Source: Candidatus Marinacidobacterales bacterium (GTDB taxonomy: Bacteria; Acidobacteriota; Vicinamibacteria; Marinacidobacterales; SMYC01). From it: a stretch of 64,000 nucleotides of DNA. Shown piece by piece: positions 54,600 to 58,416 of the stretch. The notes below the pieces were generated by a model. That model saw nothing but the letters and a program-made list of their open reading frames with translations. It ran no database searches and was not told where the DNA came from. Position 1 is the first letter of the stretch; every line of letters starts with the position of its first letter. The stretch is from assembly GCA_965224085.1 (NCBI GenBank), contig CBDCYI010000005.1, forward strand, positions 448,001 through 512,000. Reading direction: 5' to 3'. The position numbers were made by a program, and so were the translations under genes.

Positions 54600-55386
54600 T
54601 GCTAGTGATCCACCATCGTCTCGCGTTGCGGTCGAGCTTCAGTCGTCCCGTGAAATCTGGGTGTACGACCTCGAACGTGGAACGCGAACACGTGTCACCG
54701 CGAGCGGAAGTGCAACCGACCCCGAGTGGACGCGAGACGGGACGCATATTTTGTTCTCATGGTTGCGAGACTCCGCAGCGGATTTCGATATTTACTCGAA
54801 GAGGGCCGACCGGAGTGGGGAGGCGGAGCTCGTTCTTTCGACCGTGGGGCATGCCTTTTAGCCGGAGCCGTCGCCCGACGGACAGTCCCTTGCCTATTTC
54901 TTGGGTCCGGGAAATGACGTGTGGGTGGCGCCTGCGGACGGCGAACCGGTGCGCTTCTTGGAAACCGCGTTCCGCGAGCACTCCGCGGTGATCTCACCCG
55001 ACGGCCGATTCCTCGCGCTCGTCTCCGACGATTCGGGTCGCAACGAGGTCTACGTGCATTCCTACCCGGACGCCCAGAGGCGATGGACCATCTCGAGCGC
55101 GGGCGGCACCGAGCCGGCCTAGTCGGTGGATGGCAGCGAGCTCTTCTACCGGAACGGTGACGAAATGATGGTTGTCGCGATCGAAACCGATCCCGAGCTC
55201 GACCCCGGTGTTCCGCGAGCTCTCTTTCGAAAAGCCTTTATCATGGGTCCGATCCCGAGCAACTACGACGTCTCGCCTGATGGTCAGCGATTCGTCAATG
55301 GTGGAGGGCGGAGCCGAAACGGCAGAGATTCGCATCGTCCTCAATTGGCTCGAAGAGCTCGAGCGGATCGCACCGTCGGGCAACTG
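54600..55386 (+). pseudogene. PD40/TolB beta-propeller C-terminus of a Ser/Thr kinase, degraded
   Basis: SPDGRFLA..SDDSGRNEVYV, YDVSPDGQRF, VLNWLEEL; two in-frame TAGs and a frameshift. Confidence 0.8.
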
Positions 55387-55393
55387 ACGCGAA

Positions 55394-57538
55394 TCAGTCG
55401 AGGCGGCTCCTGGACACTACGAAGGCGTGGAGCTCCAGAATCTGCTCGTTCGTAAGCAATGAGCCAAACGCGGGCATCGTCGTTCCCGGAACACCCGCGG
55501 CGGTCTTGTCGACGAAGCTCGATACCTCGCGCGTCGTGCCGAAGATATTCGGGCCGCTCCCGCCAGCGGATTTGTGGCAACCCACGCACCGGGCGCGACA
55601 CGTCCGCTCGGCCCGGCCCATCGCGTCGGCGTCTCCGATGAACGGATTTGCTGAGTTAGAGGAAGACTGCGTTGGCATGGGCGGGCCGGATCCGGTGATC
55701 GGCTCTGCGCCTTCGGTCGCGGGAAAGCCGTAGCCGGGCAAGACGCGGCCGCCGAGGGTATGGCCGGGTTCGCCGACTCTAGGTATGCCGCCCTCGAGGG
55801 TGACGAGGTTGCTTCCCGGACCGATCCTCGCCTGGCCGCCGCCGTCGATGGCGAAGACCCAGAGGTTTCCAGCCTTCGGCTCCGTGTAATAGAACGTCAT
55901 GTCGCCGCCGATGCCGCCGGAGGGGACGGCGAGATATTGCGTGCCGTCGAGCTCATAGGTAATGGGGCTTCCGATGATGCCCGAGCCTGTCTGGAACTGC
56001 CACAGCACGGTGCCGTTTCTTGCGTCGAGGGCCATGAAGTAGCCGCGCATGTATCCGGTGAAGACGAGCCCCGTTGACGTCGCTACCGCGCCGGCCCAAA
56101 AAGGCGCAGGGCTCACCGCACGCCAAACGACCTTCCGCTCGACGACGTCGAAGGCGACGAAGTTGCCGGGGTTGTCGCTTGTCATGTATTGCTGGTAGTC
56201 GGCGCCCAGATACCACTCGCCGTTCGTGGGCACCTCGAATTGGTCCTCTTCCCACATCTTGTAGCCCATGGCCCACTGGTTGGACATGAAGTACAAGTAT
56301 CGGAGGTCGGGGTTGTACGCGAGAGGCTGCCAATCGATCGCTCCTTCGAGGCTCGGGATGATGGGGCCGACTTCAGGGCCGCCCGAGAGCCCCACCATGT
56401 CCATGTTGATGTCGGGGCGACCGGTCTCGGGGTCGAGGCCGTGGGCCCAGTTGATGTCGGGCACGATGGGCTCGCCATAAATGAATTTTCCGTTCGTGCG
56501 ATCGAGCGCGTAGAAGAAGCCGTTCTTGTCGTGGTGGAAGAGCGCTTTGACGAGACCGTGATCGCCGAGCTCGACATCCGCGAGCAACGGCGTGCTCACG
56601 GCGTCGTAGTCCCAGCAGTCCCACGGGGTGTATTGGAAGCCCCACTCGATGTCGCCGCTATCCACGTCTATAGCGATCGTCGCGGCCGTCCATTTGTTGT
56701 CGCCCTTGCGGACGTGACAGTTCCAAGGCGCTGCGTTTCCCGTGTTCCAATAGACGAGGTTCAAGGCCGGATCGTAAACGCCTGTTGTCCACGTCGGTCC
56801 GCCGCCGTTTTTCCAAGTATCGCCGGGCCATGTGTCGTTGCCGGGCTCGCCTGGGCCGGGGATAGTATAGGCCGTCCACCGCAGCTCACCGGTCTTCGCG
56901 TCGAAAGCTTTGACGAAACCGCGTATGCCGAACTCGCCGCCGGCCACTCCCGTGAGAACCATGTCCTTTACCACGAGCGGCGCTCCCGTGATGCTGTAGC
57001 CTTGCCGCCAGTCGATGACTTGGGTCTCCCAAACGACGTCGCCGCTCTTCTTGTCGAGCGCGACCATGCGGGCATCCATCGTCCCTACGAGCACGAGCTC
57101 GCCCCAGAGCGCGACCCCGCGATTGATTGAGCCACAGCAATAGACGCGCTCGGATTCGTCCGAGAGCTCGGGGTCGTAGCTCCATAGCTTCGCGCCCGTG
57201 CGCGCGTCGAGCGCGAAAACGCGGGAGTCGTCTGCGGAGAGGTACATCACGCCTTCGTGGATCAAAGGCGTCGCTTCCAAACCGCGATTGTCGCCTCCTG
57301 TCGTGAACACCCATGCGGGGTGGAGCCGGTCGACGTTCGCCGGCGTGATTTGATCGAGGTCGACGAAGCGCTGGCCGGAATAGTCACGGCCATAGGTGAG
57401 CCATGACGCGTTGTCGTGAGCGGCGTTCTCGAGATGCTCGGTCGTAACCGGCTGCGCGAACAACGTCGAGCAGGAGAGAGCGAGTAGCAGGAACATGTTG
57501 GCGACGAGTGAAAACGAGTGCGATTCAGAAGAGTCCAT
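55394..57538 (-). CDS. PQQ-dependent alcohol dehydrogenase with C-terminal cytochrome c (quinohemoprotein), lanthanide-type active site
   Basis: Vicinal CC (YCCGSINRG), GGEFG, TGNAAPW, WDYDA, Trp-docking repeats; CVGCH..MPAF. Confidence 0.9.
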   Translation of the reverse strand: MDSSESHSFSLVANMFLLLALSCSTLFAQPVTTEHLENAAHDNASWLTYGRDYSGQRFVDLDQITPANVDRLHPAWVFTTGGDNRGLEATPLIHEGVMYLSADDSRVFALDARTGAKLWSYDPELSDESERVYCCGSINRGVALWGELVLVGTMDARMVALDKKSGDVVWETQVIDWRQGYSITGAPLVVKDMVLTGVAGGEFGIRGFVKAFDAKTGELRWTAYTIPGPGEPGNDTWPGDTWKNGGGPTWTTGVYDPALNLVYWNTGNAAPWNCHVRKGDNKWTAATIAIDVDSGDIEWGFQYTPWDCWDYDAVSTPLLADVELGDHGLVKALFHHDKNGFFYALDRTNGKFIYGEPIVPDINWAHGLDPETGRPDINMDMVGLSGGPEVGPIIPSLEGAIDWQPLAYNPDLRYLYFMSNQWAMGYKMWEEDQFEVPTNGEWYLGADYQQYMTSDNPGNFVAFDVVERKVVWRAVSPAPFWAGAVATSTGLVFTGYMRGYFMALDARNGTVLWQFQTGSGIIGSPITYELDGTQYLAVPSGGIGGDMTFYYTEPKAGNLWVFAIDGGGQARIGPGSNLVTLEGGIPRVGEPGHTLGGRVLPGYGFPATEGAEPITGSGPPMPTQSSSNSANPFIGDADAMGRAERTCRARCVGCHKSAGGSGPNIFGTTREVSSFVDKTAAGVPGTTMPAFGSLLTNEQILELHAFVVSRSRLD

Positions 57539-57583: not shown

Positions 57584-58156
57584 TTACGTTCTCGCTTCGG
57601 CGATGGCGCGCTCCAACAAATCTAGCACCTTTAGCTCAGAAGCCCACTTATCGAGATATTCCATGTTGAGATGCCCTTCTTTGACGCTTAGCACGCCAAT
57701 GACATCTTGCCATTGGCGCTCCGATACCTCCCCGCCGTTTCGATACCAGTGGATTTTGTGAAGCACAATATCCTCAGCGCTCGTGACATAGAAGGTGTCG
57801 TTCTCCGTCAAGTGCTCGAGCTTTCTTCTCTCGAGCGACGATCTTTTGAAGGCATCCGAGCCGGAGACGAACACGTCTACTTTGAACATCGTTTGGAAGT
57901 GTATGGCGTTGAACGAGGAGCCTTTTTTAGCCGCGGCGAGTGCCCTTACCTTAGGAATGTAGTAGTCAGGTTCGAGCTCCGCAACGAGCGCGTCGACTTG
58001 TTCGGGTACGAGTGACGTCAACACGTCGACATCGAGACTGGATCGTGCGACGCCATGAACGGAGCTGGCGACAGAACCACCCAACTGATATTCGATACCC
58101 AACTCCTCGAGCGTCTCGATCAGCGGGACGAGAGCTCCAAGAAGTCTCGGATCCAT
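57584..58156 (-). CDS. Putative nucleotidyltransferase toxin-like protein
   Basis: GGSVASSVHG..RSSLDVD, EDIVLHK, RQWQDV. Confidence 0.75.
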   Translation of the reverse strand: MDPRLLGALVPLIETLEELGIEYQLGGSVASSVHGVARSSLDVDVLTSLVPEQVDALVAELEPDYYIPKVRALAAAKKGSSFNAIHFQTMFKVDVFVSGSDAFKRSSLERRKLEHLTENDTFYVTSAEDIVLHKIHWYRNGGEVSERQWQDVIGVLSVKEGHLNMEYLDKWASELKVLDLLERAIAEART

Positions 58157-58416
58157 TATTCGGACTGGGGCTTTGCGAAGTGATCCCGGAGCTCTTTCTC
58201 GAGCTCGGAGCCATAATGGAGGCTCACCCACTCGAGAAGAATTTCTCGCTCCGAGGCTTGTGGCCGCTTTTTTCGAAGGGCGCGTCTCGAAAGCATGACG
58301 ACCGACGTAGTGAGGGCATCCATGAGCGCGAAGCGTTCGCGGACAGACGCGTTTCGCAGAAGCCGAAGCATCTCGGCCTCGGTCTCTGGATCGGTGTCGG
58401 CCCACAGCGGTTTCAT
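58156..58416 (-). CDS. Small partner protein (antitoxin-like)
   Basis: MKPLWADTDPETEAEMLRLLR..ER; TAATG overlap with downstream gene. Confidence 0.7.
   Translation of the reverse strand: MKPLWADTDPETEAEMLRLLRNASVRERFALMDALTTSVVMLSRRALRKKRPQASEREILLEWVSLHYGSELEKELRDHFAKPQSE

Follow-up and report, generated by a model that had tools for sequence, protein, structure and literature searches.

Among the dehydrogenases that carry pyrroloquinoline quinone (PQQ), the lanthanide-dependent ethanol dehydrogenase PedH of Pseudomonas putida KT2440 passes its electrons to a separate cytochrome, and the XoxF enzymes likewise use a separate cytochrome, XoxG. Both have an additional Asp two residues after the catalytic Asp (D-x-D), a residue that is said, after Good et al. 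in 2020, to be essential. Type II quinohemoprotein alcohol dehydrogenases (ADHs) carry a cytochrome of their own at the C-terminal end. In Table S1 of Voutsinos et al. (2025; PMC11996626) the confirmed quinohemoproteins 1KB0, 1KV9 and 1YIQ are entered as 'ADH type 4' with calcium, every confirmed lanthanide enzyme belongs to XoxF or to type 2b (ExaF, PedH), all confirmed D-x-D enzymes are lanthanide enzymes, and no heme-fused lanthanide enzyme stands among the entries. Here we describe a gene in a 64,000-nucleotide stretch of DNA (the window) from a Candidatus Marinacidobacterales bacterium (GCA_965224085.1, contig CBDCYI010000005.1, positions 448,001 to 512,000). It occupies positions 55394–57538 of the minus strand (ATG start; stop codon 55394–55396) and encodes a PQQ quinohemoprotein dehydrogenase of 714 residues, in which a lanthanide-type D-Y-D motif and a C-terminal cytochrome c stand in one chain. 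The gene is real and well conserved. An initial annotation had taken it for a lanthanide-dependent quinohemoprotein from a poorly studied clade, and this is still the best reading, yet unproven. We consider it probable that the protein, a member of the methanol/ethanol PQQ family, works in the periplasm as a lanthanide-PQQ quinohemoprotein dehydrogenase, its metal use being deduced from the motif and a structural model.

The metal site is what sets the protein beside the lanthanide enzymes. The D-Y-D tripeptide pointed out in the initial annotation at 56603–56611 coincides exactly with Asp310-Tyr311-Asp312 of the minus-strand reading frame (WDYDA, residues 309–313), that is, with the catalytic Asp and the extra Asp of lanthanide type. 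Asp312 aligns, with no gaps nearby, with the extra Asp of PedH (WDFDG; 6ZCV/6ZCW) and of XoxF (WDYDG; 6DAM, 4MAE), and the aligned structures carry titles with the words lanthanide-dependent or with Eu, Ce or La. This alignment and the entries of Table S1 bear out the annotation's premise that the additional Asp marks XoxF, ExaF and PedH. Its second premise, that the characterized cytochrome-fused type II ADHs are calcium enzymes lacking this residue, agrees with the same table and with the solved members, all three of which have Thr at the position (1KV9 D-F-T, 1KB0 D-Y-T, 1YIQ D-Y-T; the motifs of 1KB0 and 1YIQ were read via the representative sequence P0153, which scores 781 bits to 1KV9). 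The calcium-type Thr two positions after the catalytic Asp is absent from the protein studied here, which has Asp312 in its place. The vicinal cysteines and the metal-ligand Glu and Asn motifs named in the annotation were located as well. Cys134-Cys135 (57134–57139) would form the disulfide ring that lies over PQQ in this enzyme family. Glu202 in GGEFG (56933–56935), a predicted metal ligand, aligns with the GGEFG of PedH and XoxF and is nearly invariant in alignment A1. It is preceded by Gly201, a position that holds Gly in 65 of 95 D-x-D representatives and Ala in 11 of 17 D-x-T representatives. Asn268 in NTGN (56735–56737), likewise a predicted ligand, aligns with the Asn of SolV XoxF 4MAE; the residue list in PMC8561711 gives E172, N256, D299 and D301.

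These residues are strictly conserved in the family. From 8000 scored candidates, 7981 of them with E ≤1e-20, the best 120 homologues were combined with the query into a set of 121 rows; these homologues are 72–94% identical to it, measure 630–814 residues and all carry both PF01011 and PF13442. Asp310, Asp312, Cys134, Cys135, Glu202, Asn268, Cys274, Cys651, Cys654, His655 and Met688 are each present in 121/121 rows. Cys308 occurs in 119/121, and Cys647 is peculiar to the query, Tyr standing there in 116/121. Two of these cysteines are specific to the family. Cys274 in WNCH (56717–56719) and Cys308 in WDCWD (56615–56617), the latter two residues before the catalytic Asp, are candidate partners of each other, and none of the listed representatives outside the family has Cys at either position. 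The suggestion in the initial annotation that extra cysteines near the active site form a second disulfide fits such a co-conserved, family-specific pair, which does not prove the bond. The few homologues with a name are proteins from metagenome-assembled genomes of Vicinamibacteria, Acidobacteria or Bryobacterales, in keeping with a poorly studied clade, and the ESM Atlas returned only clusters of the identical PQQ plus Cytochrome_CBB3 architecture. Within the order, an ortholog is present in 21/41 genomes, the gene's own genome counted (by family 13/18, 7/14 and 0/8), usually full-length and 72–93% identical; its retention, full-length in most of the 21 matching genomes, may be counted as a sign of selection.

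The sole long open reading frame (ORF) within 55394–57538 is that of the minus strand, the plus-strand frame being broken by many stops. Pfam recognizes the PQQ domain in the 714-residue protein with E 6.6e-77 and Cytochrome_CBB3 (PF13442) with E 2.9e-08 at residues 642–707. TIGR03075, the methanol/ethanol PQQ dehydrogenase model, matches residues 29–541 with 599.1 bits, above its cut-off of 480.05. In view of the Pfam and TIGR03075 scores, the layout of domains and motifs is not due to chance. The second-best NCBIfam match, TIGR04528 (acido-empty-quinoprotein group A), remains with 395 bits under its cut-off of 650. The chain begins with a predicted Sec signal peptide (residues 1–28; 57455–57538), read from the sequence by its hydrophobic core and the ending LFA|QP. 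Cleavage is likely to occur after Ala28, and residues 6–26 of this region form a lone helix in the AlphaFold model. There follows an eight-bladed PQQ beta-propeller at residues 29–565 (55844–57454), delimited by structural alignment to PedH 6ZCW and by model confidence. The Gly/Pro linker foreseen in the annotation spans residues 566–636 (55631–55843), where Gly and Pro make up 38% of the residues vs 16% in the rest of the protein, and low model confidence also sets this region apart. It leads into the class I cytochrome c domain at residues 637–714 (55397–55630).

The cytochrome, too, is as the initial annotation had described it. The CVGCH heme c attachment motif lies at residues 651–655 (55574–55588), and Met688 (55475–55477, within Met688-Pro at 55472–55477), aligned with the MPAFG Met of cytochrome c6, is the probable sixth heme ligand. 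Taken alone, the heme domain finds its best solved relative in cytochrome c6 3DMI (E 0.005), and the heme domain of 1YIQ matches with E 0.13. Cytochrome c assembly genes are represented in the genome by three matches over the cut-off of PF01578.

A structure model, which the annotation had proposed for the metal site, was built with AlphaFold2 from an 82-row alignment (mean predicted local distance difference test score, pLDDT, 88.3; predicted template modeling score, pTM, 0.89). Only the linker is weak, with block means of pLDDT from 47 to 75; most 10-residue blocks of the propeller have a mean above 90, and the three helices of the cytochrome domain reach block means of up to 93. By sequence, the solved structures rank with PedH first (6ZCV/6ZCW, 448 and 443 bits), followed by 1KV9 (391) and the XoxF structures 6DAM (368) and 4MAE (354). 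Foldseek also placed the lanthanide-dependent PedH first (42% identity, root-mean-square deviation (rmsd) 1.6–2.1 Å), and VIA-align to 6ZCW gave Z 53.7 and rmsd 1.6 Å over 531 residues (model residues 30–568, 44% identity). The Z scores to PedH, ExaA, XoxF and MxaF structures lie between 49 and 54, as befits a propeller of the TIGR03075 family, and structures of sorbose and glucose dehydrogenases give poorer matches (Z 43–46 vs 50–54). The model in its entirety, with the heme domain, can be superposed as a single body on 1YIQ (623 residues, rmsd 3.0 Å, model residues 26–711), on 1KV9 (614 residues, 2.9 Å) and on 1KB0 (617 residues, 3.4 Å), and these quinohemoprotein alignments extend about 90 residues beyond that to PedH, to the end of the heme domain. 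The model thus places the heme domain as in the type II enzymes. The cytochrome arrangement of that type was found, namely a C-terminal cytochrome c with CxxCH and axial Met, a linker, and docking on the propeller, with the superposition reaching residues 711–714. The data show the order of the domains, the motifs and how well they are conserved, the fold, and a heme domain placed as in the solved quinohemoproteins.

We then asked how common the pairing of D-x-D with a fused heme is. Among 1.84 billion cluster representatives (50% identity) 42,489 relatives were found at E ≤0.001, and 126 listed representatives of at least 520 residues were aligned with the query and 10 family members (137 rows). 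Outside the query family, 12 listed representatives combine D-x-D with a C-terminal CxxCH, and their tails all match the hidden Markov model (HMM) of the family's heme domain with E ≤9e-5. A further 19 carry D-x-D, mostly as D-W-D, together with one or two N-terminal CxxCH motifs. The HMM of the family's heme domain fits the C-terminal heme tails of other representatives no better and no worse than the N-terminal ones. D-x-D with a fused heme is common in environmental sequences. The sequence premises of the initial annotation stood, and the combination is less special than it had implied.

Phylogeny was inferred with FastTree (133 of the 137 rows, the query and the 10 family members included and 4 rows of thin coverage dropped) and with IQ-TREE (59 rows). 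In both trees the query family and its sister representative P0121 form a fully supported clade outside the classic quinohemoprotein clade, for which P0153 was the anchor. P0121 is 54% identical, lacks CxxCH and ends in the middle of the linker, where it was probably cut. The classic quinohemoprotein clade, of 33 rows, is mixed, with 12 D-x-D, 17 D-x-T, 2 D-Y-N, 1 D-Y-A and 1 G-F-D, and D-x-D rows include its earliest branches. Forcing the query family and this clade together, a grouping that was chosen after the tree had been seen, cost 9.1 log-likelihood units (approximately unbiased (AU) test, p 0.33), so common ancestry is not rejected. The phylogeny suggested in the annotation thus yields a supported clade of its own, apart from that of 1KV9, 1KB0 and 1YIQ, and does not refute a joint origin. 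Lys338 also occurs outside the fused clades, in 22/92 other rows. Within the classic calcium clade, P0204, P0159, P0227, P0217, P0236, P0184, P0203, P0219, P0265 and P0268 show D-x-D with a C-terminal heme, some of them branching early, and P0159 carries three CxxCH motifs. P0129, picked by its motif as an anchor for PedH, was rejected, as its score to PedH (438 bits) does not exceed that of the query (448); it falls in a different tree group from the query family. The trees contain no true PedH or ExaF sequence.

Based on these data, the following course of events is proposed. The protein would be exported via its Sec signal peptide, and heme c would be joined at Cys651 and Cys654 and ligated axially by His655 and Met688. 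In the propeller, under the Cys134-Cys135 ring, Glu202, Asn268, Asp310 and Asp312 would bind a light trivalent lanthanide together with imported PQQ. An alcohol or aldehyde would be oxidized at the lanthanide-PQQ center, with Asp310 acting as the base, and the fused heme would take the two electrons from PQQH2 one after the other and hand them on to some periplasmic acceptor. Which metal is bound, what is oxidized, how the electrons travel and what finally accepts them are all inferred. A fuller version, put forward tentatively and in our view a little short of evenly balanced, is that of a self-contained lanthanide quinohemoprotein with Ln3+-PQQ and heme c in one chain, a family-specific disulfide between Cys274 and Cys308 fastening the loop of Asn268 to that of Asp310/Asp312, and a host that scavenges both PQQ and lanthanide. 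If it were true, the early D-x-D branches in the classic quinohemoprotein clade would suggest that the type II ADHs with calcium arose from ancestors of lanthanide type.

Several observations weigh against the reading as a lanthanide quinohemoprotein. Of the pqq genes that the annotation had recommended looking for, PqqC was not found over the cut-off in the genome (6.87 Mb, 95% complete) or in any of the 41/41 genomes of the order, its own included, and for PqqE only weak radical-SAM matches were obtained in the genome. The PqqC search works, as it succeeded in 9/151 genomes across the phylum, a count to which the unpublished genome G089 contributes. The holo-enzyme would therefore depend on import, which is unproven. 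A PqqU-like TonB-dependent receptor is encoded in the genome (G000:C4:1105658-1107634; 30% identity to E. coli PqqU, E 1.4e-77). It scores 332 bits with NF041535 vs 129 for the next family and lies far under the equivalog cut-off of 1200 bits. A 2026 preprint (10.64898/2026.07.10.737718) cautions that the name PqqU is often wrongly given to receptors for lanthanides, so the cargo of this one could be PQQ or lanthanide. Furthermore, the motif is necessary for lanthanide binding in the enzymes tested, and its sufficiency is assumed. The known structures 1KV9, 1KB0 and 1YIQ may themselves have guided AlphaFold in placing the heme domain. Broken copies of the gene exist in related genomes, one being split into two ORFs (G004), one interrupted by TGA and TAG (G012) and one lying in two frames (G003, locus L025); gene decay in some lineages or assembly errors may be behind them. 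Synteny around the gene is seen only with genomes of the same genus, and no pqq, xoxJ, xoxG, lanthanide-related or redox-partner gene is among its neighbors, lanmodulin and lut genes not having been searched for.

Because the genome and the order lack pqqC while the genome has one PqqU-like receptor, we infer that PQQ, and perhaps lanthanide too, is imported, PQQ probably through this receptor. According to PMC12124388, Vicinamibacteria include producers of PqqU, and Acidobacteria that bear PqqU show no synthesis of PQQ. The receptor measures 772 residues with an extra N-terminal region (locus L030:8644-10962, minus strand), is the sole strong match to E. coli PqqU in the genome, and adjoins formate-dehydrogenase-like or NADH-type genes, as read from the ORF starts. 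PQQ propellers are numerous in the genome, as they are in the others of the order; 8 of the 11 that were read in this genome have D-x-D, 3 have N-x-D and none has the calcium-type residue. Two paralogues, L004 and L005, are D-x-D PQQ dehydrogenases with an N-terminal cytochrome. L004 (G000:C4:638005-639499), with CDQCH in the N-terminal cytochrome c and D-W-D, was matched in two pieces, 638306-639499 and 638005-638304, which suggests a frameshift or a split gene.

The lack of PqqC in the 95% complete genome and throughout the order, together with a second-best NCBIfam match to acido-empty-quinoprotein group A, would also suit an 'empty' quinoprotein, or one with a cofactor other than PQQ, in an organism unable to make PQQ. 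We regard this as highly improbable, as TIGR04528 stays under its cut-off while TIGR03075 passes, the Cys-Cys ring, the Glu, the Asn and the catalytic Asp are invariant, and a PqqU-like importer is encoded, in line with PMC12124388. More has to be said of a calcium-dependent or metal-promiscuous quinohemoprotein ADH, in which the second Asp would be tolerated without dictating the metal. The architecture is that of the calcium type II enzymes 1KV9, 1KB0 and 1YIQ, common ancestry with the calcium clade is not rejected at AU p 0.33, and D-x-D and D-x-T are interleaved in that clade (12 and 17 of 33 rows), from which it follows that the residue at the position of Asp312 changes easily. Against calcium stand Table S1 of PMC11996626, in which the confirmed D-x-D enzymes are all lanthanide enzymes and the confirmed quinohemoproteins all combine Thr with calcium, the presence of Asp312 in 121/121 rows, the lanthanide-dependent PedH as nearest solved protein, and the absence of a calcium-type residue from all 11 paralogous propellers read in the genome. 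A calcium-dependent or promiscuous metal site is unlikely.

The proposed chemistry could also be right with a different substrate, such as a sugar, a polyol, an aldehyde or a polymer-derived alcohol, a variant compatible with a lanthanide quinohemoprotein. It would agree with a clade that stands by itself (42–44% identity to PedH, 33–37% to the quinohemoprotein ADHs), with a family-specific Cys pair beside the active site and with surroundings free of alcohol- or aldehyde-pathway genes. The best family match is nevertheless the methanol/ethanol model, and sorbose and glucose dehydrogenases fit the model with Z 43–46 vs 50–54, so that such a substrate appears somewhat unlikely. We therefore keep to a lanthanide-PQQ quinohemoprotein dehydrogenase.

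The gene stands alone, surrounded by TPR, FG-GAP, sortilin/BNR, B3/4, metallo-beta-lactamase, GNAT, metallophosphoesterase, PPTase and amidohydrolase genes. Between it and the GNAT gene, a minus-strand ORF of 273 residues (57584–58405) has no Pfam or NCBIfam match and no tblastn match in the same-genus loci L017 and L025, in which the GNAT gene is found a short way upstream of the dehydrogenase; this ORF has the look of a local insertion. A plus-strand ORF of 109 residues (55126–55455), also without a family match, overlaps the dehydrogenase gene at its 3' end. Over its first 57 residues this shorter ORF shares 48% identity with a stretch next to the ortholog of locus L019, and it may be what is left of a longer gene. 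A promoter and terminator scan revealed no promoter-like site and one terminator-like site inside the gene, fewer than shuffled sequences give. Contigs of two marine-sediment RNA libraries (X20, and X21 with a guessed RNA label) cover parts of 55720–57203, mostly with 90–95% likeness, and further contigs of the RNA libraries lie over 54900–55383, in the region of the 109-residue ORF. These contigs stem from relatives, possibly from DNA carry-over, in runs that were chosen with this gene, and are no proof of transcription.

Full-text literature searches, which cover few subscription journals, yielded no description of a lanthanide-dependent eight-bladed quinohemoprotein. Two statements come nearest. 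Voutsinos et al. (PMC11996626) mention 'metal cofactor heterogeneity' within ADH type 4, in a text that speaks of neither heme nor cytochrome. The preprint 10.64898/2026.07.10.737718 describes, for some PQQ proteins of lanthanide type with six blades, a domain that binds heme and is 'reminiscent' of type IV quinohemoproteins. The case that the majority of PQQ dehydrogenases belong to the lanthanide type has already been made in large surveys, and this, with the heterogeneity within ADH type 4, limits the interest of one more. If the reading is true, the enzyme would offer a single-chain system for measuring how a stronger Lewis acid shifts the potential of PQQ and how electrons move from PQQ to heme, without a partner cytochrome. 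Quinohemoproteins serve in direct-electron-transfer electrodes, and a lanthanide quinohemoprotein would be a candidate for the same use. It would also lend more support to the view that abundant Acidobacteriota of soil and sediment run periplasmic alcohol oxidation on scavenged PQQ and rare earth.

In comparison with known systems, PedH ('ADH type 2b'; 6ZCV/6ZCW) is the best match by sequence and by fold. It shares with our protein the Cys-Cys ring, GGEFG, the Asn ligand and W-D-(F/Y)-D with the extra Asp, but has no heme domain, and has Ser and Gly at the positions of Cys274 and Cys308. The type II ADHs ('ADH type 4'), that is ADH-IIB (1KV9), ADH-IIG (1YIQ) and the quinohemoprotein ADH of Comamonas testosteroni (1KB0), have the identical order of signal peptide, propeller, linker and C-terminal cytochrome, and Lys338 (DKNG) is as in 1KV9. 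However, they have GGAEYG instead of GGEFG, their identity to our protein is 33–37%, the heme domains are barely alike (E 0.13), and the linker of our protein is longer. The XoxF structures (6DAM, 4MAE/6FKW, 6OC5, 7O6Z) agree with it in W-D-Y-D, GGEFG and fold (Z about 50, rmsd 1.4–1.5 Å), with 36–40% identity; they lack a fused heme, and the XoxF-like clade, named from its motifs, sits elsewhere in the trees than the query family. The heme-first D-x-D PQQ dehydrogenases of the same genome (L004 and L005) are likewise exported acidobacterial proteins with D-x-D and a heme domain of their own, from a genome that probably imports PQQ. They carry the heme at the N-terminal end, whereas in the protein described here it is found at the C-terminal end.

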